Shown: piece by piece, positions 3,625-38,715 of the stretch
How positions within the stretch are numbered: the first letter of the stretch is position 1
How the letters are laid out: every line of letters starts with the position of its first letter
Assembly: GCA_002778535.1 (NCBI GenBank)
Contig: PFBP01000039.1
Coordinates: forward strand, 5,695-44,409
Direction of reading: 5' to 3'
DNA: 38,715 nucleotides
Source of the DNA: Candidatus Kuenenbacteria bacterium CG10_big_fil_rev_8_21_14_0_10_36_11
Lineage (GTDB): Bacteria > Patescibacteriota > Patescibacteriia > UBA2196
Made by a program: the position numbers and the translations under genes
The notes under the pieces: generated by a model
Databases searched by the model: none
The model's input: the letters and a program-made list of their open reading frames with translations, nothing else
What the model was told of the DNA's origin: nothing

Positions 3625-3652
3625 TTAGGCTGGGTTTTAAAACCCAGCCTAA
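3625..3652. repeat. Palindrome family B, perfect 28-mer TTAGGCTGGGTTTTAAAACCCAGCCTAA
   Basis: Perfect palindrome 11 nt after the mrdA stop. Probably acts as a terminator hairpin. Related copies at 19207, 22879 and 17469. Confidence 0.8.
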
Positions 3653-4449: not shown

Positions 4450-4453
4450 CAAA

Positions 4454-4486
4454 CCAAAACCCCGTTTAAACGGGGTTTTGGTTTTG
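4454..4486 (+). terminator. Rho-independent terminator
   Basis: CCAAAACCCCG-tttaaa-CGGGGTTTTGG followed by TTTTGG. Confidence 0.7.
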
Positions 4487-10733: not shown

Positions 10734-10763
10734 GGATCCCGTGTCAAGCACGGGATGACAAAA
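10734..10763. repeat. Hairpin repeat family A variant (GGATCCCGTG-tcaag-CACGGGATGACaaaa)
   Basis: Has the family's GGATCC / GATGAC ends with a different, compensated stem. Lies in the typA 5' region, 20 nt before the ATG. Confidence 0.7.
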
Positions 10764-16966: not shown

Positions 16967-16997
16967 TTGTCATCCTGACGAAAGTCAGGATCCAGAA
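16967..16997. repeat. Hairpin repeat family A (ttGTCATCCTGAC-gaaa-GTCAGGATCCagaa)
   Basis: Perfect 10-bp stem followed by a T-run (aattttttttg), so it is likely used as the terminator of 16651..16941. Confidence 0.8.
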
Positions 16998-17056
16998 TTT
17001 TTTTTGTGTTTTTATTTGTTTGTGTTATACTTCAAATATAATTATCCACAACTATT

Positions 17057-19147: not shown

Positions 19148-21286
19148 ATGAAGTTAATTAAAACACTTTGTTTACAGCTTTTAGACTGGGTTGGGGTTAG
19201 GCTCGGTTTTAAAACCAAGCCTAATCCTCAGTCGAAGTTTTGGTTCTCAAAAACCGCGCGCGGATTCTTTTTTTCCAGCCTGGTTTTTTTTATTTTGGCA
19301 ATTTTAATTTATCCCTCGGCCACTCATGTTTTTCGCTTTAAAAACAAAGTTTTTGGCGAAAAAATAATTGCCATTCAAAGACAAACTGGCTATCCAAAAT
19401 TAGCCAATTATTTTTTATCATCTGACCAGAATTTTGATTATCAAAAATTAGCCAGTTATGACACAGTGATTTTGCCCATTGACACGCAAATTTATAATCC
19501 GGAATTTTTTGTTTATGCGAGAGATTATAATCCTGATATTATCATTCTCGCTTATACGCCTTCGCAAAGCGTTAATGTTAATGCACTTAATGACCAAAAT
19601 AGTTTTAATTATAAATTAAACGCTCAAATCAAAGACGAATGGCTGCTTAAAGATTCTAATCATAATCTTATTTCTTCCTGGTCTGGTTTGAAAAATATCA
19701 ATGTTAATTCTGACTGGAATAATTGGCTGCCAGAATTTGTGCAGGCAGAAGTATTAAGCAATGGTTTTTGGGACGGGATTTTTTATGATATGGTTGATAA
19801 AACCATAAATTGGACAAATAACGGCGATATTGATTTGGATAATAATGGCATTAAAGATGAAGCTGATTATGCTAACAAACTTTGGCAAAATGGTTTTACT
19901 AAACTTTTGCAAAAATCGCGCGCAATTTTTGGCCAAGAAAAAATTATTGTTTTAAATGGCGCGATTGACGAGTCTTGGCTGCAATTTGTCAATGGTATAA
20001 TGTTTGAAAATTTTCCAACACCATGGCTTGGCAATAGCTGGCAAAATTCAATGAATCTTTTAAAAAAATATCAGGCCATGGTGCCGGCTGGGCAAAAAGT
20101 TTTTATTATCAATAATTTAGGATTGGACAGCAATTTTAAAAAAATCCGTTTTGATTTAATTTCCGCCTTGTTTGAAGATGTTTATTTTTCATCTGACCAA
20201 AGCGTGGAGATTCATGAAGATTTGCGCTGGTATGATGAATATGATGTTAATCTTGGCGCAGCCTTAAATAAACCGTATAATTTATTGAACACCAATGTTG
20301 TTCAATATTCAGCCAGTATTTGGCGCCGTGATTTCACTAACGGAATCACTATTTTGAATGTTACTCAAAAAGAACAGACCATAAATTTAACTGACGGAAT
20401 TTATGAAAAAATTCGCGGCCAAGAAAATCAAATTAACAATGGCCAGATAGTTAATCAAATAACTTTAGCGCCAACCGAAGGCGTGGTGCTATTGAGAAAA
20501 TTAGAGCTTTTAAAAAATGTGGCTTTTAATAACGGCGTTTTTGTTAGAATATTTAATAATAAGTCAGAAGTTAAAAGAACAGGTTTTTATTCTTATGATC
20601 CGGCCGTGGCTGGTGGCAGAGAAATGATTTTGATTGATGTTGATCATGACAATGAATTGGAAAAAATTATCGCGCATAACGGCGAGATTCGCGTGATAAA
20701 AAAAAGCGGCCTGATTATGAGTTCTTTTTATCCATATACTAAAAATTATCAAAAAGGCGCACATCTGGCTTTAGCTGATTTAAATAATGACGGACAATTG
20801 GAAATAGTGACTGGCGCTTATCAGGGCGGGGGTCCGCACATTAGAATTTTTGATTTACAAGGCCAGCTTATCAATGTTGGCTGGTTTGCTTTTGATAAAA
20901 ATAATCGCGGTGGAGTGAGTGTCGCTCTTGGCGATATTAATAATGACGGAGAGCAAGAAATTATTGCTGGCGCTGGCAAAGGTTTGGAACCGCAAGTTAA
21001 AATTTTTAGTCTAACTGGTAAATTATTAAAGACATTCTTGGCTTATGATAAAAATTTTAAAGGCGGGGTTAATGTGGCAAGCGCTGATTTGAACAATGAC
21101 AAGATAAATGAGATAATTACTGGCGCGGGCGCTTCTGGTGGCCCGCATGTCAGAATTTTTAATGGGCAGGGAGTTAATTTGGGAATGGATTTTTTTGCCT
21201 TTGATAAAAACAAAAGACAAGGCGTGCGCGTGGGTGCTGGCGATATTGATGATGACGGGCAAATAGAAATTTTGGGAATGAACTAA
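19148..21286 (+). CDS. Membrane-anchored surface protein: glycoside-hydrolase-like (GHL15-type) domain plus FG-GAP/VCBS repeats
   Basis: The C-terminal half has at least five units of DxNxDGxxEI(I/V)TGAGxGGGPH(I/V)RIF. The N-terminal part (YDTVILPID...WDGIFYDMVD) resembles a putative TIM-barrel GHL family. ATG 19148 is chosen because the promoter TTGACA-N17-TACATT (19112..19140) overlaps the track start 19139. Confidence 0.7.
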   Translation: MKLIKTLCLQLLDWVGVRLGFKTKPNPQSKFWFSKTARGFFFSSLVFFILAILIYPSATHVFRFKNKVFGEKIIAIQRQTGYPKLANYFLSSDQNFDYQKLASYDTVILPIDTQIYNPEFFVYARDYNPDIIILAYTPSQSVNVNALNDQNSFNYKLNAQIKDEWLLKDSNHNLISSWSGLKNINVNSDWNNWLPEFVQAEVLSNGFWDGIFYDMVDKTINWTNNGDIDLDNNGIKDEADYANKLWQNGFTKLLQKSRAIFGQEKIIVLNGAIDESWLQFVNGIMFENFPTPWLGNSWQNSMNLLKKYQAMVPAGQKVFIINNLGLDSNFKKIRFDLISALFEDVYFSSDQSVEIHEDLRWYDEYDVNLGAALNKPYNLLNTNVVQYSASIWRRDFTNGITILNVTQKEQTINLTDGIYEKIRGQENQINNGQIVNQITLAPTEGVVLLRKLELLKNVAFNNGVFVRIFNNKSEVKRTGFYSYDPAVAGGREMILIDVDHDNELEKIIAHNGEIRVIKKSGLIMSSFYPYTKNYQKGAHLALADLNNDGQLEIVTGAYQGGGPHIRIFDLQGQLINVGWFAFDKNNRGGVSVALGDINNDGEQEIIAGAGKGLEPQVKIFSLTGKLLKTFLAYDKNFKGGVNVASADLNNDKINEIITGAGASGGPHVRIFNGQGVNLGMDFFAFDKNKRQGVRVGAGDIDDDGQIEILGMN
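19207..19234. repeat. Palindrome family B copy (TTAGGCTCGGTTTTAAAACCAAGCCTAA), one stem mismatch
   Basis: Lies inside the predicted N-terminal tail of 19148..21286 and is translated VRLGFKTKPN. Confidence 0.75.
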
Positions 21287-21295
21287 AACTTCCCT

Positions 21296-21395
21296 TTGTC
21301 GTCCACGCGCAAGCGGGGATCTCGTGGAATTACTAAAGTGCTGGGATTCCCGCTAGAGCCTGCCCCCAACTTTGATTGGGAGCGGGAATGACAGA
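21296..21395. repeat. Compound, degenerate family A elements
   Basis: ttgtcgtccacgcgcaagcggggatctcgtggaat is followed by ggattcccgct...agcgggaatgaca, with a nested CCCAA/TTGGG hairpin. Intergenic. Confidence 0.55.
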
Positions 21396-22878: not shown

Positions 22879-22908
22879 GTTAAACTGGGTTTTAAAACCC
22901 AGTTTAAC
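22879..22908. repeat. Palindrome family B, perfect 30-mer GTTAAACTGGGTTTTAAAACCCAGTTTAAC
   Basis: Perfect palindrome between the GT2 stop and the DUF2304 start. Confidence 0.8.
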
Positions 22909-23280: not shown

Positions 23281-23358
23281 TTGTCATCCTGAACTTGATT
23301 CAGGATCCAGAAATTCTTAAAATTTTTTCTGGATTCCTGCTTTCGCAGGAATGACAAA
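23281..23358. repeat. Two family A hairpins arranged head-to-head
   Basis: ttGTCATCCTGAActtgaTTCAGGATCCagaa (23281..23312) and tctGGATTCCTGCtttcGCAGGAATGACaaa (23328..23358) are in opposite orientation with different, internally compensated stems. Confidence 0.8.
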
Positions 23359-29506: not shown

Positions 29507-31693
29507 TTATTTCCTCACAAATTTAAACACCCACACTTTGCCATTTTCTAAATTCAATGTTTCATCAGCCACGGCCTCAAGCCGCGGTTTTATTTTTTTC
29601 AAATTAAACCAATAATCAGGCAGGTATAAATAGATGATATTGGCGCCAGTTAAATCCATGGCTTCTTTTGCCACTTGAGGGTCAATTAGCTCGTCATAAG
29701 CCATTTTAGCGTAGATCTTGTATAATTTTCCGCCAGTTGGAATTGAGTAAAAGAAATATTTATGGTCAAAATAGCGGAACCCGAACTCTGTCAAAGCCGC
29801 GGCGCCGATTTGTTGATTGGCTAAAACAACATAAGGTTCTTTGGTAATTTCATCAAGATATTTTACGGCCTGAAAATCATGGATTGAAGTATTAAACCCG
29901 CGATTTAACATATACACATCTTGCCGTGGATAGGAAAAATACAATGAAAAAGTTGCGCCTGCAGATATTATTAGAATTAATGTTGTCATTCCGACCCCAC
30001 TTTTCGCGAAAGGCGGGAGAGGAATCCAGTCGCACTTAATAATGTGTCTTATTATTTTCCACGCACCAAACATTGCCAAAGGTATTAAAAAATAAATTCC
30101 TAAATTAAAAATGCGCCAGCTAAAATCTCCGCGTTCATAATCAATTAAGAACGGGAAACTAATAAAAGAAAAAACAAAGAAAGAATTTATCAGTAGAATT
30201 ATAAAGATTTGCAAAAATATGTTGCTGCTATTTTTTAAATAGCCATTATACATTATACATAATACATTATTCATCTTGTGCCAGACATTGAACTTCCGCC
30301 AACCATAAACTGCTAATCCAATTATGACAACAAAAAGCATTACTGGCTGCCAAAGAAAATAAGCCACAGTTTTACAAAGATGAACAAAATTAGTGTTCAA
30401 GAATAAGTCTGGCGAGAAACGGAAAAGATTATGATAAAAATTTGTTAAATTAAAATTATTGGTTATTTCAATTTGGTTTAGAAGTGAGATTTTAGAAAAT
30501 GTGAAAAATACAAGTGGAAATAAAAATAAAAGTAATAAAGTAATAAAGTAATAAAGTATTTTTTTAATTTTGTTTTTTAAGAATAACAAGATGCAAAAAA
30601 TAAGCGCAGCTACGCCAGCTAATGGGTGGATAAATAAAATGGCTAAAGATAATAAAAAAAGTAATCCGTAATTGGTAATTGGTAATTGGTAATTGGTAAT
30701 TAGGAATTTAAAACCTAAAAACGCTATAACAATTACTAATAAATCTGCTAAATTTTGGGGCGTGGTAAAAGTAAAAATAGAGAAGGGAATCAGTAGAAAA
30801 ATGTATAATGTATTATGTATAATGTATAATGGGAAATTTAATTTTTTAAAAGCAGAAAAAATTGTCGCTGGCAATAATATTGAAGCTAATAAAGGTACTA
30901 AATTTTTATCAATTATAACATGAGAAATTTGGAAGATTTTGGTTAAAAAAATTACCAAAGAATATTGGCCTAAATAATAGAAATTTTTAGGCAAAATAAA
31001 ACCGAAATCCAAGATATGTTTTTCTGTGGCCTCATGAATAAACGGGTCATAGCCAAAGCCAAGCGGGAAAATAATATTGGCTAAGTTAAAAGAAAATAAT
31101 AAGTGCAAGCTGGTTAAAATTAAAGTGTAAATTGATTTTAATTTTGTGCTTAAATAAATTAGAACTGCGGTAGCTAAAAAATAAGCAATGAAAAAAGTTT
31201 TTGGCACAAAAATCCAAGGCGTGCGTACTGCTTCTAAAGTGGCACCTGATTTAAGCAAAAAATAAGCGGCGGATAAAAAAATTAAATAAAGCGCGGGTAA
31301 AAAGTAATTAATGATTAGTGATTGGTGATTAGTAATTTTTAAATCAAAAATTTTCAGTATTGATTTGTCTGTGACAAATGATTTTTTCCACTGAGATAGT
31401 AACAACAAAACACTGCTTACAAAGATAATGAAACTAGCCACTATTAAATCATTAAGTTTATAAAAATAATAAACCACAGTTAAAGCAATAATTGTAATTG
31501 ATAAAAATGTTAAGAAGCCAAACAGCCATTGCTCGCCAGAAAAATTGTTTTTAAACAAAATTTTACCTAATGAAAGACTGCTTAAAATAATAAAAATTAA
31601 ACCAAAAATAACCCCAAGAATAGCGGAGTGTATCAGTAAAATATTTAAGGTTAAAATCAGGGTTGAAACAAGATTTAAGGCAATTAATTTCAT
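29507..31693 (-). CDS. Large polytopic membrane protein with C-terminal soluble domain, unknown function (possibly GT-C-like)
   Basis: Uninterrupted 728-aa ORF with more than 15 hydrophobic segments. Its stop lies 1 nt from the start of the downstream gene, so the two look like an operon. It contains at least five in-frame repeat insertions. Confidence 0.6.
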   Translation of the reverse strand: MKLIALNLVSTLILTLNILLIHSAILGVIFGLIFIILSSLSLGKILFKNNFSGEQWLFGFLTFLSITIIALTVVYYFYKLNDLIVASFIIFVSSVLLLLSQWKKSFVTDKSILKIFDLKITNHQSLIINYFLPALYLIFLSAAYFLLKSGATLEAVRTPWIFVPKTFFIAYFLATAVLIYLSTKLKSIYTLILTSLHLLFSFNLANIIFPLGFGYDPFIHEATEKHILDFGFILPKNFYYLGQYSLVIFLTKIFQISHVIIDKNLVPLLASILLPATIFSAFKKLNFPLYIIHNTLYIFLLIPFSIFTFTTPQNLADLLVIVIAFLGFKFLITNYQLPITNYGLLFLLSLAILFIHPLAGVAALIFCILLFLKNKIKKILYYFITLLLLFLFPLVFFTFSKISLLNQIEITNNFNLTNFYHNLFRFSPDLFLNTNFVHLCKTVAYFLWQPVMLFVVIIGLAVYGWRKFNVWHKMNNVLCIMYNGYLKNSSNIFLQIFIILLINSFFVFSFISFPFLIDYERGDFSWRIFNLGIYFLIPLAMFGAWKIIRHIIKCDWIPLPPFAKSGVGMTTLILIISAGATFSLYFSYPRQDVYMLNRGFNTSIHDFQAVKYLDEITKEPYVVLANQQIGAAALTEFGFRYFDHKYFFYSIPTGGKLYKIYAKMAYDELIDPQVAKEAMDLTGANIIYLYLPDYWFNLKKIKPRLEAVADETLNLENGKVWVFKFVRK
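29983..30029. repeat. Degenerate family A element inside a CDS
   Basis: ttgtcattccgaccccacttttcgcgaaaggcgggagaggaatccag, translated on the minus strand as WIPLPPFAKSGVGMTT. Confidence 0.55.
30243..30274. repeat. Left arm of intragenic inverted repeat (7-nt-period cattata array)
   Basis: ccattatacattatacataatacattattcat matches the reverse complement of 30801..30832 at 31 of 32 positions (first 28 identical). Confidence 0.85.
30531..30558. repeat. 9-nt-period tandem array (agtaataaa x3)
   Basis: agtaataaagtaataaagtaataaagta, in frame and translated YYFITLL. Confidence 0.6.
30661..30709. repeat. 7-nt-period tandem array (gtaattg, 4 perfect plus 3 degenerate units) inside a CDS
   Basis: gtaatcc gtaattg x4 gtaatta ggaattt, translated on the minus strand as KFLITNYQLPITNYGLL. 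Confidence 0.85.
30801..30832. repeat. Right arm of intragenic inverted repeat
   Basis: atgtataatgtattatgtataatgtataatgg; see 30243..30274. Confidence 0.85.
31304..31338. repeat. Degenerate 7-nt-period array inside a CDS
   Basis: gtaatta atgatta gtgattg gtgatta gtaattt, translated KITNHQSLI. Confidence 0.65.
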
Positions 31694-31784: not shown

Positions 31785-34514
31785 ATGACAGAAATTTTAG
31801 TTAAAAAAAGAGGCCGGCCTAAAAAGCAGTTGTTAGAAAAAAAAGAATCCCCCTCAAAAAATATCCAAGAGAATTGGACAGATGATTTTGTGTTCCCAAT
31901 TTTTTCTGAAACTAAAAAAAGCATTAATCAAAAACAGTCGCCGTATATTTTGGATCTTAAACATCAACAAGAAAAAAAAGAAGTAAAAAATTTGCCAGCC
32001 GCGCCAGTTTTTAATCCTGACAATTGGTTTAGCAATTTTCCAGTTGCCAGCGACAACCGCGCTTCAGATTTAGAAAACTTAGGTTATCATCATTATCATA
32101 AAAATAATTTTGATTCACCCGCTGAACCAAGCCATTATGAACAAAAAATAACTTATCACCGGCCTGATAAATATAGATATAAAAATAATTTGAAGCTTAA
32201 TCTAAGCCAGGGACTCATGGCTAACGCGCCGCAAGCTTCCGGAATCTTACTATTTTTTAAGAAATTTTTTGTTTTCAGAATCATGGGTTTTATTTTGTAT
32301 TATTTCTGGCAAATCATTGCTTTTCCTTTTAGGATGTTGGATTTTTTAGTTGACCGCACCCTAAAAGCAATTTGGCATCTTATCAAAGGAATTTTTTTGG
32401 GAATCATTAATTTGTTTATTTTGACTTTGGTTAATTTTAAAAAACTTTTCATGCTTGGTTTGCCAGCCAGGCATTCCGAGGTTAATTTTTCTTTATCGCG
32501 CCCGTCCAAAAGAATTTTTAAACCATTAGTTACATTCTTTTTAGCCGCCTTAATAATTATTATTCCTTTTCAAATTATTAATCTCAAACAAAAATCAACT
32601 CTTATTAAAGGCCAAGTCCTTGGCCAATCACTGGCCGGTTTTGAAGCTTTGAAAGAAGCGTCGTTAAAAAGCAATGATTTTGATTTTTCCGGCGCCGCGG
32701 CCGCTTTTGAACAGGCATATTTTAATTTTTCTTTAGCAGAAAGTTATCTTAATAATTTAGACGGTTTTAGCCAAGAAGTTTTGCGCTTTTTGCCAGCTGG
32801 AAAAAACGGGGAAAATTTAATTATAATTGGCCAGTTGTCAGCCAAAATTGGCGCTGATATTACTGAGCTTGGAAAAGATATAGATAATCAGGAATCTGGG
32901 GCTGGCCTTTTGAACAAGGTAATAGCTATGCAAAACGCATTGAATAAAATAGAGCCGAATTTTTTAGAATTAAAAAATCGAGTCCAGGATATTGACCAAG
33001 AATTTGTTGCCCAATATTTAGATGAGACAGCCGAGAAAAGAATAATTTTATTCCAATCTGCTTTGCCGGCTCTGGCTGATAATTTTGAAAAGATAAAAGG
33101 TCTCACTGATTTTTTAGCGAATTTTTTAGGACTTAATGAAACGAAAAATTATTTGTTTATTTTTGAGAATAATAATGAAATCAGGCCGACTGGTGGCTTT
33201 ATGGGTTCTTTTGCTTTGGCAGAAATTAAAAACGGCGAAATTGCGCGTCTTGAGGTGCCGGGCGGCGGTTTTTATGATTTGAAAGCAGGTAATCAAATTT
33301 TGGTTGAAGCGCCAAAGCCGTTTCAATTGTTCGCGCCGACCTGGCAGATTTGGAATGCTAATTGGTTCCCTGATTGGCCAGCATCAGCGGAAAAAATTGC
33401 CTGGTTTTATGAAAAATCAGTTAATGGCATCACAGTTGACGGAGTGATTACTTTGACCCCAAATGTGCTGGAAGATTTATTAAAAATAACCGGTCCGATT
33501 AAAATGCCGACATACAATAAAATTATTAGCTCGGAAAATTTGGTCAGGGAATTGCAAGAAGCAGTGGAATTGGAATATGATAAAACAGAAAATCAGCCTA
33601 AAAAAATTATCAGCGATCTGATGCCAATGATTTTAGCTAAGATTTTTAATTTAAAAACAAACGAAGCCATGCCGTTTCTGGCTTTGATCAATAAAAATGT
33701 GGCAGAAAAAAATATTTTGCTTTGGTTTAGAGATGAGGCAATGGAGCAAGTGGCGCAAAATTTTTCCGCGGCTGGACAAATTAAAAATAACGACAAGGAC
33801 TTTTTAATGGTTGTGCACACAAACATTGGCGGCGGTAAAACCGACCGCGTGATAAAAAACAAAATCAATCATGAAGTAAATATCGGACTGAATGGCAAAA
33901 TAACTGATATGGTAACTTTAACAAGAAAACATGAGGGAGACCCAGATGATATTTTTGAAAAACAAAATAATGTGGATTATGTGAGATTTTATGTGCCAGC
34001 CGGGAGCAGGTTGATTTCTGCTAATGGCTTTGATGTAATAAATTCAAATTTATTTAAAACGCCTGATTCTGATGATATCTCAAAAGATAAAGATTTGGCA
34101 GACATAGAAAAAAATCCAATGATTGATGAAAATTCTAACACGAGAATTACAGAAGAATTCAATAAAACTGTTTTTGGTAATTGGCTCATGGTTAAGCCTG
34201 GCGAGGAAAAAACTGTTATTTTAACTTATGAATTGCCTTTTAAATTTTCAATTGAAAAAAAAGATAATTTCTGGCAGAAAATTACCGCGGTTTTTAATAG
34301 AGAAAATAAAAATTCTGAAACTGAAAATTATAGTTTGATTATTCAAAAACAGCCGGGTGTCATGGAAACAGAATTTACAAGCAGAATAAGTTTGCTGCCT
34401 GGCAGCCAGGTTGAAAATATGAATGGCAAGAATAATCTGGAAAATAATAACGGCGCGATTATTTATCAAGATGATTTAAAAACAGACGGGTATTATGAAA
34501 TTGAGGTGAAATAA
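31785..34514 (+). CDS. DUF4012-domain membrane protein with N-terminal AT-hook-like motif
   Basis: NNNEIRPTGGFMGSFA is the DUF4012 signature. TM segments lie at about aa 150-270. ATG 31785 (MTEILVKKRGRPKK) is preferred to GTG 31773. Confidence 0.75.
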   Translation: MTEILVKKRGRPKKQLLEKKESPSKNIQENWTDDFVFPIFSETKKSINQKQSPYILDLKHQQEKKEVKNLPAAPVFNPDNWFSNFPVASDNRASDLENLGYHHYHKNNFDSPAEPSHYEQKITYHRPDKYRYKNNLKLNLSQGLMANAPQASGILLFFKKFFVFRIMGFILYYFWQIIAFPFRMLDFLVDRTLKAIWHLIKGIFLGIINLFILTLVNFKKLFMLGLPARHSEVNFSLSRPSKRIFKPLVTFFLAALIIIIPFQIINLKQKSTLIKGQVLGQSLAGFEALKEASLKSNDFDFSGAAAAFEQAYFNFSLAESYLNNLDGFSQEVLRFLPAGKNGENLIIIGQLSAKIGADITELGKDIDNQESGAGLLNKVIAMQNALNKIEPNFLELKNRVQDIDQEFVAQYLDETAEKRIILFQSALPALADNFEKIKGLTDFLANFLGLNETKNYLFIFENNNEIRPTGGFMGSFALAEIKNGEIARLEVPGGGFYDLKAGNQILVEAPKPFQLFAPTWQIWNANWFPDWPASAEKIAWFYEKSVNGITVDGVITLTPNVLEDLLKITGPIKMPTYNKIISSENLVRELQEAVELEYDKTENQPKKIISDLMPMILAKIFNLKTNEAMPFLALINKNVAEKNILLWFRDEAMEQVAQNFSAAGQIKNNDKDFLMVVHTNIGGGKTDRVIKNKINHEVNIGLNGKITDMVTLTRKHEGDPDDIFEKQNNVDYVRFYVPAGSRLISANGFDVINSNLFKTPDSDDISKDKDLADIEKNPMIDENSNTRITEEFNKTVFGNWLMVKPGEEKTVILTYELPFKFSIEKKDNFWQKITAVFNRENKNSETENYSLIIQKQPGVMETEFTSRISLLPGSQVENMNGKNNLENNNGAIIYQDDLKTDGYYEIEVK

Positions 34515-34665
34515 ATTGCGGGAAAACATTTATGCTTGACTTTTTTAGGCGAGTTTGATAATCTGCTCTGAAACAATAAAGCACTTTGTCCTTCACATAA
34601 ATACACAAGAGCCATCAATCGGCTCTGTTTTTTTTCTTAAAAATCAATGGTATAATGGAGCTATT

Positions 34666-35616
34666 ATGCCAGACAATATTATTAAAATTCTTAATGTTAA
34701 AATAAATGCTTTGGCCAAAGCAGAGATTTTGGAGCGGATAAAAAATTTACTACTTTCAGAATCGTTTGAACAATGCCAATTAGTTACCACTAACCCGGAA
34801 TTTATTATTTCAGCGCAAAAGGACGAGGAATTTAAAAATATTATTAATAATTCATGGCTTTCAGTAGCAGATGGTTATGGAATTCGGCTGGCAGCAAAAT
34901 ATAATTCAGAAATTCAGAAATTGAGAAATTTAGAAATTAAGGGAAATAACCCAATAATTATGTCATCCTCGCGAAAGCGAGGATCCCGTGGAATTTTATG
35001 TGGTTTATTTTTTGGCCTTAAAATCGCTTGGTGGGGAATATTGAAAAAGGACGAGAAATTAGATATAATTAAAGAAACAATTACTGGCACTGATTTGATA
35101 CCTGAAATAGCTGGAATTATGAATTATGAATTAGGAATCATGAATAAAAAGGTTTTTCTCCTTGGTGGTTATGGAGATGTGCCGCGACTGGCGGCGGAAA
35201 AATTGCAATCAATTTATTCTGTAGGGGCAATTCATGGATTGTCCCCACAGGACCGTGTATATATTTCCAATAATACGCCCTTACAAATTAAATACGCACC
35301 GTTTGAGGTAAATAACATTATTGAAAAAATAAATCTTTTTCAGCCAGCGGTTTTATTTGTTGCCCTGAATCACCCGCGGGCGCAGAAATGGATTAATGAA
35401 AATTTACAAAAAATGCCGTCAGTAAAATTGGCGATTGGTGTTGGCGGCGCGTTTGATTATATTTCTGGAAAAATAAAAAGAGCCCCCAAAAATTGGCAAG
35501 GATCGTTTGAATGGCTGTATCGTCTTTTCTACCAGCCGAAAAGATGGAAAAGAATTTGGCAGGCAAGTATAGTGTTTCCATGGGGAGTGTTTAGAAGAGT
35601 TATTTATAAAAATTAA
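34666..35616 (+). CDS. tagA: WecB/TagA/CpsF-family (GT26) glycosyltransferase carrying four in-frame repeat insertions
   Basis: Family blocks VTTNPEFI, ADGYGI, ITGTDL, VFLLGG, PRAQKW, IGVGGAFDYISGKIKRAP and EWLYRL are all present in order. ATG 34666 follows GGAG and a TGgTATAAT element. Confidence 0.8.
   Translation: MPDNIIKILNVKINALAKAEILERIKNLLLSESFEQCQLVTTNPEFIISAQKDEEFKNIINNSWLSVADGYGIRLAAKYNSEIQKLRNLEIKGNNPIIMSSSRKRGSRGILCGLFFGLKIAWWGILKKDEKLDIIKETITGTDLIPEIAGIMNYELGIMNKKVFLLGGYGDVPRLAAEKLQSIYSVGAIHGLSPQDRVYISNNTPLQIKYAPFEVNNIIEKINLFQPAVLFVALNHPRAQKWINENLQKMPSVKLAIGVGGAFDYISGKIKRAPKNWQGSFEWLYRLFYQPKRWKRIWQASIVFPWGVFRRVIYKN
34903..34942. repeat. 8-nt-period array (aattcaga x5, degenerating) inside tagA
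   Basis: aattcaga aattcaga aattgaga aatttaga aattaagg, translated NSEIQKLRNLEIKG. Confidence 0.75.
34960..34994. repeat. Family A hairpin inside tagA (atGTCATCCTCGCgaaaGCGAGGATCCcgtggaat)
   Basis: Perfect stem CCTCGC/GCGAGG with the family's GTCATCC / GGATCC ends. Translated MSSSRKRGSRG. Confidence 0.8.
35114..35148. repeat. 7-nt-period array (gaattat x2, gaattag, gaatcat, gaataaa) inside tagA
   Basis: Translated IMNYELGIMNK, immediately before the conserved VFLLGG block. Confidence 0.75.
35221..35248. repeat. Palindrome family C, degenerate copy inside tagA
   Basis: GTAGGGGCAATTCATGGATTGTCCCCAC differs at 3 positions from the perfect copy at 37854. Translated VGAIHGLSP. Confidence 0.75.
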
Positions 35617-35625
35617 ATCTAAATT

Positions 35626-36478
35626 ATGAAAGATCAAAATGACAATATAAATATAAAAATAGTGATTGGGGATAGTAGAAAAATGGACGCAGTGAAAAAT
35701 AACAGCGTGAATTTAATTATAACTTCGCCGCCGTATTTTAATGCTAAAGAATATAGTAAAGATTATTCCGGTAAGGATTTGGGCAATATTGATGATTATG
35801 AATTATGGAAAAAAGAGATAAAAAAAGTTTGGAAAGAATGTTTTAGAGTATTACAGCCTGGCAGAAAAATGTTTATAAATATAATGAACTTGCCATTATC
35901 TAATGAAAATAATAATGGCAATGGTTTTAGAACACTTAATATTGTAGGTCATATTATTGATATGTGCGAGGAGATTGGTTTTATTTTTAAAAGAGAAATT
36001 ATCTGGCATAAAACAAATGGAGTGAGAGCTAATTTTGGCACTTATCCATATCCGGGTGGCATACTTATAAATAATATGCATGAGCAAATTTTAGAATTTG
36101 ATAAACCAAATGGCAATGGCTCAAAATATGAGCATCTTTCAAAAGAAATAAAAGAGGCCTCCAAATTAACAAAAATTTTTTGGTTAAGTTTAAAAAATTC
36201 TGATGTTTGGTTAATGAAACCATATAAAAGCGGTTCACGGGAAACATCTGGCGCCGTTTCCTTTGGAATTGCCGTTGCGTCTCATAAAAGCATATTCTTA
36301 TATTTCAGAAATTATATTAGATCCTTTTGGTGGTATGGGCACGACGGCCAAGGCAGCTATACGAGAAAAAAGAAGTTGTATTATTTATGAAATAAATAAA
36401 GATTTCTTACCTTTAATTAAAAATAATTTAAATGACACTTTATTTGATAATTCAATTATAGAGGTCATTTATAAATAA
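35626..36478 (+). pseudogene. Beta-class SPPY DNA methyltransferase interrupted by a +1 frameshift
   Basis: Frame 1 (35626..36390) carries IITSPPYFNAKEY and SDVWLMKP. Frame 2 (open from 36218, track ORF 36263..36478) carries HLAPFPLELPLRLI and ILDPFGGMGTT. The frame switch must lie within 36223..36244. Confidence 0.7.
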
Positions 36479-36482
36479 AAAT

Positions 36483-37382
36483 ATGGATGGCAAAACAACT
36501 TATGCACAATCAAGCGATATAAAATCAAGAACCTATTTAGAATATCGCAAGGATATGAAGAAAAAAGTAATTGTTGAGCTGGAACTTTTATCTTGGCTGC
36601 AAAGAGTAGTAAAAAGCGATTTTGATGATAAAACTGCCAAAATTAAAAAGGGCGGCGGAGATGCTTTTATTTGGTTTTTAAGAAAAGGTGGTATCACAAG
36701 AGAGCCAGATTATGAAGTGTTTGGAAAAAATAATTTTAAAATAGAATTGCAGTATGGTCAGGAAATAAATAAAAAAAGCATTTCTGAGGATTTAGAAAAA
36801 ATATGGAAAATCATTAACTTTAAATTGCAGGTTTTGGATTTTCAACACCAACTGATAGACATTACCAAAGACCGTTTATCTTTTTTATTACAACAGGTTG
36901 TTGATGAAGAAAAGATTGTTAGTATTATACCCAATAATTTAGAAAGCTTTTTTAGAATTTGTTTTATTTTAGATAATATAAATAAAATTCCAAAAAATTC
37001 CAGCCTCTGGTTAATTTATTTATTAAGTTTTATTTCTAAAAAAACCACTACGGAAGAATTATATAAAATTTTATATTGCATTGATTTTCTTTATTCAAAA
37101 ATAGAATTAAAGAAAAATGAATTAGACAAATTGGTAGAAGCCACCATGAGTTGTCAAAAATTATTAAGTAAATATGAACAAAACAATGGCATTTATAAGT
37201 CAAATATAAAAATTTCGCCAATAGATGAAATTAGATATGCTTTATTTTCCATAAATTTATTAGAAGATTTAACACAAGACATAATTCATTATTATAAAAT
37301 AGATAAATTATCTCCAATACAAAAAATTTATCAAACAATCAATGATTTAGAAAAAATAATTAAACACATAAATAATCAATAA
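36483..37382 (+). CDS. Putative cognate restriction endonuclease (PD...E-x-Q variant), otherwise uncharacterised
   Basis: Starts 4 nt after the methylase stop. VELELL...REPDYEVFGKNNFKIELQYG fits E / PD / ExQ spacing. The C-terminal 200 aa are helical and low-complexity. Confidence 0.35.
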   Translation: MDGKTTYAQSSDIKSRTYLEYRKDMKKKVIVELELLSWLQRVVKSDFDDKTAKIKKGGGDAFIWFLRKGGITREPDYEVFGKNNFKIELQYGQEINKKSISEDLEKIWKIINFKLQVLDFQHQLIDITKDRLSFLLQQVVDEEKIVSIIPNNLESFFRICFILDNINKIPKNSSLWLIYLLSFISKKTTTEELYKILYCIDFLYSKIELKKNELDKLVEATMSCQKLLSKYEQNNGIYKSNIKISPIDEIRYALFSINLLEDLTQDIIHYYKIDKLSPIQKIYQTINDLEKIIKHINNQ

Positions 37383-37397
37383 AGTTGGTTTATTTTT

Positions 37398-38715
37398 ATG
37401 TCTCATAAATCAATTAAAACCCGTTTTGCTCCGAGCCCGACCGGTGATTTGCATATTGGCGGTTTGCGCACCGCGCTTTTTGCTTATCTTTTTGCCAAAA
37501 AAAATAATGGCCAATTTTTTTTGCGCATTGAGGACACCGACCAAGATCGCTACAAAGAGGGGAGTGTGGAATCAATTTTAGAGGGCTTAAAATGGGCTGG
37601 GCTTAAATATGATAATGAAATAATTTACCAGTCAAAGCGTACGGAAGTTTATCAAAAATATGCCGCTGAATTGATTGAAAAAGGCCATGCTTATTATTGT
37701 TTTTGCACTCCAGAGGATTTAGAAAAAATGCGCACTGAACAAAGCGCTGACGGCCAAACAGCCACCCGTTATGACCGCCGCTGTTTGAAATTATCAAAAG
37801 AAGCAGTGGCAGAAAAATTAAAATCACAAATTCCTCATGTGATTCGATTAAATGTAGGGGCAATTCATGAATTGCCCCTACAACAGAATGGCGGAATCAT
37901 TTCTTTTAATGATCTGGTTCGTGGCAAAATTGAATTTAATCTTAAAGACATTGACGACCAAGTCCTTTTAAAATCCGACGGTTTTCCCACTTATCATTTA
38001 GCCAATGTGGTTGACGATCACGAAATGGAAATTACGCATGTGATCCGCGCAGAAGAATGGCTGCCTTCCACGCCCAAGCACATTATTTTGTATAATATGT
38101 TCGGCTGGCAGATTCCCAAATTCGCCCATCTGTCAATGATTTTAGCGCCGGATAAATCCAAACTTTCCAAGCGCCATGGCGCTACCTCGGTTTTAGAATT
38201 TAAAAATCTTGGCTACTTGCCCGAAGCAGTTGTGAACTACATCGCGCTTTTGGGCTGGAATCCTGGCACTGAACAGGAAATTTTTTCACTCAAAGAATTG
38301 AAACAGGCCTTTGATTTGGAAAAGGTCAACAAAGCCGGCGCGATTTTTGACATTGAAAAATTAAACTGGTTGAATGGATATTATATTCGGCAGAAAAATT
38401 TGGACGAACTAACAGAATTATGTCTGCCATATTTGAATACAGAAAACACAGAAAACAAAAAAACACAGAAAACACAATCTGAATATTTAAAAAAAGTCGT
38501 AGCTTTGGAACAAGAAAGATTAAAAAAAATAAGTGACATTGGGGAGCGCACCAAATACTTTTTCCAGCGTCCCGAGTTTGATCCGAAAATGCTGATCTGG
38601 CGGAAGTCTACCCTGGCTGATGCAAAAGAAAAATTGCAATTTTTAGCCGCTGAACTAGAAAAAGTGCCTGATGAAAACTGGACAAGAAGCGCTTTAGAAC
38701 AATTTATCAAAGGAT
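37398..38715 (+). CDS. gltX: Glutamyl-tRNA synthetase, 3' end beyond the window
   Basis: Manual translation from ATG 37398: MSHKSIKTRFAPSPTGDLHIGGLRTALFAYLFAKK...FLRIEDTDQDR. It has the HIGG motif and KLSKRHG (KMSKS-type). It is not in the ORF track because no stop is reached. Confidence 0.9.
   Translation, partial: MSHKSIKTRFAPSPTGDLHIGGLRTALFAYLFAKKNNGQFFLRIEDTDQDRYKEGSVESILEGLKWAGLKYDNEIIYQSKRTEVYQKYAAELIEKGHAYYCFCTPEDLEKMRTEQSADGQTATRYDRRCLKLSKEAVAEKLKSQIPHVIRLNVGAIHELPLQQNGGIISFNDLVRGKIEFNLKDIDDQVLLKSDGFPTYHLANVVDDHEMEITHVIRAEEWLPSTPKHIILYNMFGWQIPKFAHLSMILAPDKSKLSKRHGATSVLEFKNLGYLPEAVVNYIALLGWNPGTEQEIFSLKELKQAFDLEKVNKAGAIFDIEKLNWLNGYYIRQKNLDELTELCLPYLNTENTENKKTQKTQSEYLKKVVALEQERLKKISDIGERTKYFFQRPEFDPKMLIWRKSTLADAKEKLQFLAAELEKVPDENWTRSALEQFIKG
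37854..37881. repeat. Palindrome family C, perfect 28-mer GTAGGGGCAATTCATGAATTGCCCCTAC inside gltX
   Basis: Perfect palindrome, codon-aligned, translated VGAIHELPL. Confidence 0.9.
38439..38476. repeat. 9-nt-period array (acagaaaac) inside gltX
   Basis: acagaaaac acagaaaac aaaaaaac acagaaaac aca, translated TENTENKKTQKTQ. Confidence 0.75.

Follow-up and report, generated by a model that had tools for sequence, protein, structure and literature searches.

In-frame hairpin modules and short tandem arrays at three variable sites of a tagA-like glycosyltransferase gene in a Kuenenbacteria genome

CGTC-1 REPs (repetitive extragenic palindromes) carry a terminal CGTC, often TGTC, an 8-bp stem beginning with AT, a 4-nt loop and a short CCA tail. 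They include RPE-6 of Rickettsia conorii and dRS3 of Neisseria, their intragenic copies in R. conorii are translated as SFPRKRES, VIPAKAGI or CHSRESGNP, and CGTC REPs have no known mobilising enzyme (Di Nocera et al. 2013, BMC Genomics 14:522, PMC3733652). GTAG-tagged REPs, known together with RAYT/TnpA(REP) transposases (Nunvar 2010; Bertels & Rainey 2011; Ton-Hoang 2012; Di Nocera 2013), occur in Cyanobacteria, Chloroflexi and bacteria of the Planctomycetes-Verrucomicrobia-Chlamydiae (PVC) group; some REPs lie wholly inside open reading frames (ORFs), and some REP families "reside in multiple species" (PMC3733652). Here we describe a 38.7-kb stretch of contig PFBP01000039.1 from Candidatus Kuenenbacteria bacterium CG10_big_fil_rev_8_21_14_0_10_36_11 (the window), a member of the Patescibacteria or Candidate Phyla Radiation (CPR), in which a gene for a TagA-like glycosyltransferase (tagA) contains two tandem arrays, (i) and (iii), and two hairpins, (ii) and (iv), that resemble the two REP classes (Table 1). 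All four are in frame, and they fall at three sites, A, B and C, of which A and C are empty in some orthologues and all three hold other repeats in others.

Two further systems invite comparison. Rickettsia palindromic elements reportedly lie within protein-coding genes, and hairpins (ii) and (iv) share with them the character of selfish palindromic DNA in frame in functional genes of a small genome, at surface positions compatible with protein function. The classical RPE-1 type measures about 100-150 bp and encodes 30-50 residues; the window modules span 25-30 nt and 9-10 residues, are joined by 7-8-nt arrays, and differ also in that repeated hits from different families fall on the same orthologous positions. 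Nostoc is said to carry small dispersed repeats (SDRs, 21-27 nt) and heptameric short tandemly repeated repetitive (STRR) sequences; there, as in the window, hairpin-type mobile modules of <30 nt reportedly stand beside heptanucleotide tandem repeats. According to a passage in a citing paper, SDRs are found only in Nostocaceae.

The 316-aa TagA-like protein matches Pfam PF03808 (WecG/TagA/CpsF) with 115.9 bits (cut-off 27.4; E 2e-33) and passes TIGR00696 at superfamily level (94.5 vs cut-off 69); in NCBIfam it falls below the equivalog models for TarA/TagA (the UDP-ManNAc transferase) and WecG (NF041710, 104.6 vs 350; NF002980, 85.9 vs 323), and these scores assign it no particular substrate. 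An AlphaFold2 model built on 37 homologues has a mean predicted local distance difference test score (pLDDT) of 88.5 and the GT-E fold of TagA; Foldseek matches it to the TagA/TarA structures 5wb4, 5wfg, 7mpk and 7n41 with target template modelling (TM) scores of 0.82-0.87 (0.84 for 5wb4/7mpk; E ~1e-11). All family-invariant residues are kept in the 37-homologue alignment, including T41, N43, P44, E45, D69, G70, R272, E282 and W283. An earlier reading of the window from its letters and ORFs (the sequence-only reading) had claimed that the four repeats leave the frame and the downstream conserved blocks undisturbed, and the conserved alignment columns bear this out. Relative to a 97 %-identical sister strain from Rifle groundwater, known from two separate assemblies (L001 and L002), tagA shows 24 synonymous and 7 non-synonymous differences in L001 when one divergent patch is excluded; codons 1-143, which include (i) and (ii), show 11 and 0. 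Sequence and model together indicate an intact, functional TagA/WecG-type glycosyltransferase under purifying selection. Owing to the inserts and to a block specific to the clade, no profile match starts before about residue 134 (residue 134 itself for PF03808). This leaves the N-terminal third of the domain unreported, and filters on domain coverage would under-call the protein.

The extra residues were located in alignments of the 37 and then of 120 homologues, and in codon alignments with the DNA of six orthologues. From AAKY to ITGTDL the window protein has 59 residues vs about 8 in canonical relatives, so the excess that had been pointed out (about 55 residues against a handful) is real in length, but more than half of it is due to a native block. 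This block, GLKIAWWG...KLD...ITGTDL, has a fixed length of 27/28 aa in 60 homologues, with the AWWG, KLD and ITGTDL motifs conserved, and is modelled as the second helix of a helical hairpin. Judged by alignment and model, about 28 of the roughly 51 excess residues between ADG and GTDL are native to the Patescibacteria clade and not repeat DNA. Site A lies between AAKY and GLKIAWWG, at the tip of the clade-specific helical hairpin; site B lies between ITGTDL and KxFLLGG, in the helix-to-strand loop ahead of the FLLGG strand; site C lies between AEKL and IxYxxFE, in the loop following the AEKL helix. Among 60 clade members these sites measure 8-37 (mode 16), 10-62 (mode 14) and 2-30 residues (mode 8), whereas 60 more distant homologues mostly have 4 (51/60), 14 (55/60) and 8 (49/60). 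The window protein has 37, 18 and 27, the last over a baseline of 7-8.

What fills the sites differs from one orthologue to the next. Site A is minimal in L003 and L005 (YLDLIKN|NKKN), which have neither (i) nor (ii); the 69 additional nt of the window consist of array (i), a 20-nt spacer and hairpin (ii). The same site holds ATTTCGG x4 in L006, TCCTTAT x4-5 in L007, a pair of GTAGGAACACGGCA... palindrome arms in L008 and the peptide CRDARSRVST in protein P0003. Site B is filled by CGTC-type hairpins in L008 (AIPAKAGIS) and in P0006, P0010 and P0020 (SVIPA.EPES...GMT); in the sister strain (L001, L002) it falls within a ~75-nt divergent patch that reads EICIITESTKSHNK and is unrelated to the window sequence. 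Site C is empty in L003 and L007, holds GTAG-type palindromes in L006 (GGGGCGAATAATTATTCGCCCCTAC) and L008 (GTAGAAACGCGCCATGGCGCGTCTCTG), and elsewhere CGTC-type hairpins (VIPS....SRNP). Because orthologues have empty sites, as well as other hairpins and arrays at the same positions, (i), (ii) and (iv) are best read as inserts and not as native sequence, as had been proposed. The three sites, refilled across 60 orthologues, amount to a natural map of where TagA tolerates extra residues.

The sequence-only reading also asked whether each insert maps to a surface loop. Such a placement fits the two hairpins: pLDDT falls only at residues 91-110 and 181-200, the peptides of (ii) and (iv), with (ii) in the low-confidence tip. 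Array (i) is modelled as a helix continuation (pLDDT ~88), and the segment of (iii) is modelled with a pLDDT of 89-95. By predicted translation, tryptic peptides spanning the inserts would include GNNPIIMSSSR and a peptide across VGAIHGLSPQDR.

Hairpin (ii) comprises a TGTC tag (34961-34964), a perfect 8-bp stem (34965-34984) with arms ATCCTCGC (34965-34972) and GCGAGGAT (34977-34984), a GAAA loop and a CCC tail. As RNA it folds with -16.2 kcal/mol (z = -4.2), and 0/200 shuffles fold as well. It is one of seven CGTC-type copies in the window, an inverted dimer included; the other six are intergenic. All follow one plan, with (T)GTC, then AT(T)CC, a stem of varying sequence, a loop that is mostly GAAA, GG(A)AT and CCAGAA, and their stems differ by paired changes. 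The likeness to the published class is close: the terminal tag is TGTC in (ii) and (T)GTC in the other six, ATCCTCGC-GAAA-GCGAGGAT is an 8-bp stem beginning with AT around a 4-nt loop, the copies are dispersed and mostly intergenic, some forming inverted dimers and some lying wholly in ORFs, and the three R. conorii frames SFPRKRES, VIPAKAGI and CHSRESGNP correspond to SSSRKRGS in the window and to VIPAKAGI and CHPERS in its relatives. The tagA copy departs from it in its tail, CCC where the other window copies read CCA(GAA), and the host lies outside the five phyla listed for CGTC repeats. By sequence features (ii) belongs to the CGTC-1 REP class, the fit being exact save for this tail, and the likeness to Rickettsia palindromic elements drawn from the sequence alone was apt in that the class includes R. 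conorii RPE-6. The exact 25-mer of (ii) recurs in >120 metagenome contigs of 33-70 % GC; in 128 copies with full flanks the base ahead of GTC is T in 78 and C in 43, and the base after the 25-mer is A in 104/128. Stop-free stretches of >=200 codons surround 38/129 metagenome copies, a count that we did not use for an intragenic fraction, as many of these contigs are GC-rich and give such stretches by chance.

Palindrome (iv) had been described as a degenerate copy of the perfect palindrome in gltX, and it is: 25/28 positions are equal, with 0 such matches expected by chance, and the L001 copy of (iv) has 26/28. It folds as RNA with -18.7 kcal/mol (z = -3.5 vs shuffles). The gltX site is empty in L003, L005 and L007 (LKIPT|GQTKF), the net gain in the window being +30 nt. 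At the same site L001 (4513-4540) carries a different perfect palindrome, GTAGGGACAGGTCTAGACCTGTCCCTAC, in which four mirror-image position pairs differ from GTAGGGGCAATTCATGAATTGCCCCTAC, with a net gain of +27 nt. The 28-mer has a single open frame (TAG interrupts frame 2 and TGA frame 3), which serves both window copies, the only two GTAG-type 28-nt copies in the 38.7 kb. L055 carries an intragenic variant in which CGA replaces TGA and which reads another frame within a 1728-codon ORF. Like GTAG-tagged REPs, the 28-mer is a short, dispersed, GC-rich palindrome that starts with GTAG (GTAGGGGC...GCCCCTAC, within the 20-40-bp size range), occurs in Cyanobacteria, Chloroflexi and PVC bacteria, and now and then lies within a gene, translated as VGA... 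peptides. Unlike them, it has no unpaired tag outside the stem, since in the perfect 28-mer GTAG pairs with the terminal CTAC, whereas the published tag is unpaired at one end. On these features we would describe (iv) as a GTAG-type palindrome with one deviation, the paired GTAG.

The arrays are of another nature. Tandem Repeats Finder (TRF) calls (i) as AATTCAGA x4.5 at 34903-34938 (92 % matches), which a second repeat search extends to 34942, and (iii) as GAATTAT x4.6 at 35114-35145 (88 % matches); no RNA structure is predicted for either. TRF and the stem and palindrome matching agree on all four repeat features in the coding sequence as first located, each being above chance. The window contains seven 7/8-nt arrays of >=3.5 copies, whereas 60 shuffles that preserve dinucleotides average 0.03 such arrays and never have more than 1. 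Array (i) is absent from L003 and L005 and identical in L001 and L002; it is a lineage-specific local tandem array filling hypervariable site A and belongs to no dispersed family. Array (iii) was tried as a recent insertion and rejected: in the codon alignment, L003, L005, L006 and L007, relatives at 55-60 % identity, have the same residues, length and heptamer register (peptide RIMNCESGIMNKK and similar; in L005, A-GAATTAT-GAATTGT-GAATCTG-GAATTAT-GAAT). This is the outcome that the sequence-only reading had itself named as speaking against an insertion. On these alignments (iii) is ancestral to the subclade, and it counts as derived only when compared with the 14 residues typical of more distant homologues. 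The proposal of four inserts from different repeat families therefore holds for (ii) and (iv), which are members of dispersed hairpin families, but not for the local arrays (i) and (iii), the latter being no recent insertion.

Nor is the phenomenon specific to one gene: gltX shows it as well, and so does a 728-aa membrane-protein gene of the window. The latter (29507..31693, minus strand) encodes a multi-pass protein with no Pfam match, adjoins DUF4012 and PMT_2-like genes, and contains, in frame, the other five of the seven 7/8-nt arrays, of which two (30529-30558 and 30668-30701) are perfect, AAAGTAAT x3.8 and GTAATTG x4.9. The L006 orthologue has a longer ITNYQLP heptad array (4 x 21 nt) and L007 has none, and in the window gene a CGTC-type WIP...GMT peptide is encoded near 29988-30025.

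We think it probable that tagA acquired neutral or selfish mini-repeats and the products of replication slippage, and that selection retained the stop-free, in-frame copies at permissive sites. Three tagA positions in one Patescibacteria clade would tolerate extra residues, and two mutational processes, both common in this lineage, would have filled them. Very small REP-type modules from dispersed, mostly intergenic families would insert there, a CGTC-1-type module at site A and the 28-nt GTAG...CTAC palindrome at site C, perhaps moved by a RAYT-like or another single-strand- or hairpin-dependent process. Replication slippage, on the other hand, would amplify 7-8-nt units locally, giving the 8-nt array at site A and the old 7-nt array at site B. 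Only frame-restoring copies without stops, in permissive surface regions, would survive, and they would be translated without being of use to the enzyme. As to other identities of the hairpins, a CRISPR repeat was rejected for want of array spacing and a terminator for inconsistent flanks. Intron-like excision was also set aside: net lengths that keep the frame (+30/+27 nt in gltX, +69 nt at site A) speak for translation; the use of the open frame in long ORFs is partly circular and was not counted.

Several observations weigh against this explanation. No tagA orthologue of 70-90 % identity with an empty site was found among 5.8 billion proteins, matches jumping from 92 % to 60 %, so that insertion has to be inferred from relatives at 55-60 %. 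A 25-nt or 28-nt module alone breaks the frame, and extra bases or deletions must be assumed to reach the net lengths just given. No transposase or RAYT was seen among the ORFs scanned in the 38.7-kb window, and array (i), modelled as a helix, is no simple disordered loop. Targeting, and not just a selection filter, could lie behind the repeated use of these sites. Finally, the different perfect palindromes at one gltX site suggest that symmetry is maintained, for which pure neutrality alone is no explanation. The gltX pair can be accounted for by arm-to-arm template switching, by replacement with another family member or, equally, by hairpin selection. Quasi-palindrome correction proceeds by such arm-to-arm template switching and would explain the kept symmetry. 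A reading that takes these points further is that, in a subset of Patescibacteria, 25-30-nt CGTC/GTAG modules and 7-8-nt arrays are actively targeted to the same positions of housekeeping genes by a hairpin- or single-strand-dependent mobilisation, with recent spread between phyla and symmetry kept by arm-to-arm copying. We consider it unlikely, if worth keeping in mind; were it true, the identity of the 25-mer and 28-mer across >10 phyla would record the spread of some of the smallest mobile DNA modules.

Other explanations deny either that the repeats are useless or that they are inserts. The GC-rich stem-loops could be kept as RNA or DNA signals acting in mRNA stability or processing, ribosome pausing or protein binding. 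Their folds are strong against shuffles, stems within a family differ by paired (compensatory) changes, two strains have different perfect palindromes at the same gltX site, and Di Nocera et al. (PMC3733652) argue that many REPs are transcribed RNA elements. Yet orthologues function with empty sites or unrelated fillings, (iv) is decaying (3 mismatches in the window, 2 in L001), and paired changes can arise without selection, through template switching between arms or replacement by a family member. In (iv), two of the three changes would still allow G·U pairing in the sense RNA, but three substitutions are too few for a test of G·U bias, which we dropped as a sign of RNA-level selection. Function of this kind is distinctly improbable. 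More doubtful still is phase variation, in which the 7-/8-nt arrays would be contingency tracts that shift the frame on gaining or losing a unit and so turn tagA and neighbouring envelope genes on or off. As in the phase-variable glycosyltransferase loci of Haemophilus, Neisseria and Campylobacter, the units are not multiples of three and lie in genes of an envelope-glycan cluster. Two arrays of the neighbouring 728-aa gene are perfect, and its ITNYQLP heptamer varies in copy number among orthologues. Unlike those loci, the tagA arrays are imperfect and short (~4.5 units), all alleles seen are in frame, and no unit-number polymorphism was found between the window and L001/L002, in which array (i) is identical and site (iii) differs by replacement. 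The register of (iii) is kept across the 55-60 % relatives, and the ITNYQLP difference itself comes in multiples of 21 nt.

That nothing was inserted, the loops being native, fast-evolving and of low complexity with a likeness to repeats by chance or composition, has very little chance of being right for the gene as a whole. The genome is AT-rich, and the 28-residue AWWG block and (iii) are native to the clade and subclade, respectively; but the 25/28 match of (iv), the seven tagged hairpins in 38.7 kb, the recurrence of the exact 25-mer and 28-mer each in >120 unrelated contigs, arrays >200-fold above shuffles and the empty sites of orthologues all speak against it. It is refuted for (i), (ii) and (iv) and is the better description of (iii) at the subclade level. 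An assembly chimera, or a decaying pseudogene with a clean tagA elsewhere, is scarcely credible: no support for it was found, although a neighbouring methyltransferase gene looks frameshifted. The identical protein (P0001, 100 %) lies on an independent ENA contig, both assemblies of the sister strain carry (i), (ii) and (iv) almost base for base, the ORF is intact with its invariant residues, synonymous changes outnumber non-synonymous ones 24:7, and the fold is confidently predicted. Because independent assemblies carry the same inserts, an assembly artefact, which the sequence-only reading had named as one possible refutation, is excluded.

Species-representative genomes were scanned for GTAGGGGCAAT-N6-ATTGCCCCTAC, which gave >=120 loci. 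Among the matches listed, hosts include Cyanobacteria, Patescibacteria, Omnitrophota, Planctomycetota, Chloroflexota, Nitrospirota, Deltaproteobacteria, Zixibacteria, Spirochaetota and others, the exact 28-mer occurs in >10 phyla, and the centre TCATGA is identical in 109/122 copies; most copies there are in short-ORF or intergenic contexts, often nested in longer palindromes or larger repeats, and few are in long ORFs. That the 25-mer and 28-mer are identical base for base in many phyla is striking, yet in line with REP families that reside in several species. The exact 28-mer is frequent among Nostoc and other cyanobacteria, and many copies are nested within larger repeats; in Nostoc genomes it repeatedly sits at the same point of these, for example CAAGTACGAAAT-[28-mer]-GGTAAATCAAGG and AAACTACACGC-[28-mer]-C..AAAAA..AGG. 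In Chamaesiphon and Pseudanabaena, flanks of variable sequence lengthen the palindrome by 10-12 bp. Examples of such nesting and flanks among contigs L009-L128 are L031, L054, L082, L088 and L105, and L009, L053, L086, L019 and L071. Nine viral-labelled contigs carry the 28-mer, one of which, L133 (IMGVR_UViG_3300029959_001594, 14.8 kb), has seven exact copies and could be a REP-rich host fragment or a phage carrying it. In other genomes, physical linkage between the 28-mer and 7/8-nt arrays is borderline (7/137 copies within <=60 nt vs 2.4 % of random positions, ~2-fold) and was not used as evidence.

The sequence-only reading knew of no description of such a gene for this lineage. We, too, found no earlier description of REPs or palindromic insertions in Patescibacteria/CPR in the literature searched, but the kind is known elsewhere, as intragenic GTAG and CGTC REPs (PMC3733652) and Rickettsia palindromic elements. 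As far as that literature shows, what appears undescribed is the Patescibacteria host, the presence of non-triplet arrays alongside the hairpins in ORFs, and the repeated independent refilling of three orthologous sites. CGTC-tagged and GTAG-tagged REP superfamilies would then reach the reduced genomes of the CPR, both between genes and translated inside essential genes (tagA, gltX). A measurable share of the "insertions" and low-complexity peptides of CPR proteins may be repeat DNA, such as VGAIHELPL, SSSRKRGS/VIPAKAGIQ and NYELGIM-type heptads, and would affect the annotation, hidden Markov model coverage, alignments, phylogenies and structure prediction of these organisms. The identity of the modules across phyla also bears on how such tiny elements move, CGTC REPs having no known dedicated transposase.

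Table 1. Coordinates of tagA, its repeats and related features in the window.
Feature	Position	Strand	Basis or remark
tagA, GT26 WecG/TagA/CpsF glycosyltransferase, 316 aa	34666..35616	+	Pfam, NCBIfam, AlphaFold2, Foldseek
(i) imperfect 8-nt array AATTCAGA x4.5-5, translated NSEIQKLRNLEIKG, residues 80-93	34903..34942	+	TRF, repeat search
(ii) CGTC-1-type REP hairpin, translated (M)SSSRKRGSR, residues 99-108	34961..34987	+	perfect stem, folding, family copies
Native clade-specific block GLKIAWWGILKKDEKLDIIKETITGTDL, residues 117-144	35014..35097	+	fixed length, conserved motifs, pLDDT 89-95
(iii) 7-nt array GAATTAT x4.6, translated GIMNYELGIMNK, residues 150-161	35114..35148	+	TRF
Lineage-specific site C block SIYSVGAIHGLSPQDRVYIS, ~20 residues beyond 7-8-residue baseline, contains (iv)	35209..35268	+	alignments; pLDDT 62-70
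(iv) decayed 28-nt GTAG...CTAC palindrome GTAGGGGCAATTCATGGATTGTCCCCAC, translated VGAIHGLSP	35221..35248	+	match to gltX copy
Perfect 30-nt palindrome in gltX (28-mer GTAGGGGCAATTCATGAATTGCCCCTAC plus T/A), translated VGAIHELPLQ, same family as (iv)	37853..37882 (28-mer 37854-37881)	+	in frame
9-nt array ACAGAAAAC x4.3 in gltX (NTENTENKKTQKTQ)	38439..38476	+	TRF; second gltX hot spot, relatives carry CGTC-type hairpins there
CGTC-1-type copy, intergenic, TGTC-ATCCTGAC-GAAA-GTCAGGAT-CCAGAA	1579..1604	-	
CGTC-type copy, intergenic, 5-nt loop, TGTC-ATCCCGTG-CTTGA-CACGGGAT-CCA	10734..10760	-	
CGTC-1-type copy, intergenic	16968..16993	+	core identical to copy 1579-1604
Longer CGTC-type member, GTCATTCC...GGAATCC	21344..21392	-	same termini
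Inverted dimer of two CGTC-type copies, intergenic	23283..23355	23283-23308 (+), 23331-23355 (-)	
Arrays in 728-aa gene	30244-30274, 30529-30558, 30668-30701, 30800-30831, 31303-31337	gene on -	TRF

Short-period arrays also lie near intergenic CGTC-type hairpins of the window, namely an 8-nt array TGCTAAAA x4.2 at 1647-1680, 43 nt away, and a 10-nt array TTTTTATGTG x2.3 at 16999-17021, 6 nt away. With array (i), 20 nt from hairpin (ii), 3/7 window hairpins have an array within <=50 nt, a nearness that is suggestive only. A further palindrome family, centred on GGGTTTTAAAACCC (TTAGGCTGGGTTTTAAAACCCAGCCTAA, GTTAAACTGGGTTTTAAAACCCAGTTTAAC), is found at 3625-3652, 19194-19227 and 22879-22908, and also at 4451-4484; two copies stand just past gene ends, and the family may represent either a third kind of hairpin repeat or something like a terminator.

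With 22-43 % GC the window is AT-rich, its best protein matches are in Patescibacteria/Kuenenbacteria, and the genes around tagA form an envelope-glycan cluster (GT2, GT4, PMT_2-like, DUF4012). An N6/N4 DNA methyltransferase gene that a frameshift seems to have broken (one ORF matches Pfam profile positions 1-158, an overlapping ORF positions 169-220) and a 299-aa ORF of unassigned function, together at 35626-36478 and 36483-37382, separate tagA from gltX, which directly follows tagA in L003, L005 and L007; the intervening region may be the remnant of a restriction-modification insertion. Divergence from L001 over 33300-38715 is mosaic, tagA being ~97 % identical and gltX only ~84 %. Within tagA, the ~75-nt divergent patch at site B is sharply bounded and a second cluster of changes lies near 35515-35535, a pattern that suggests recombination tracts.

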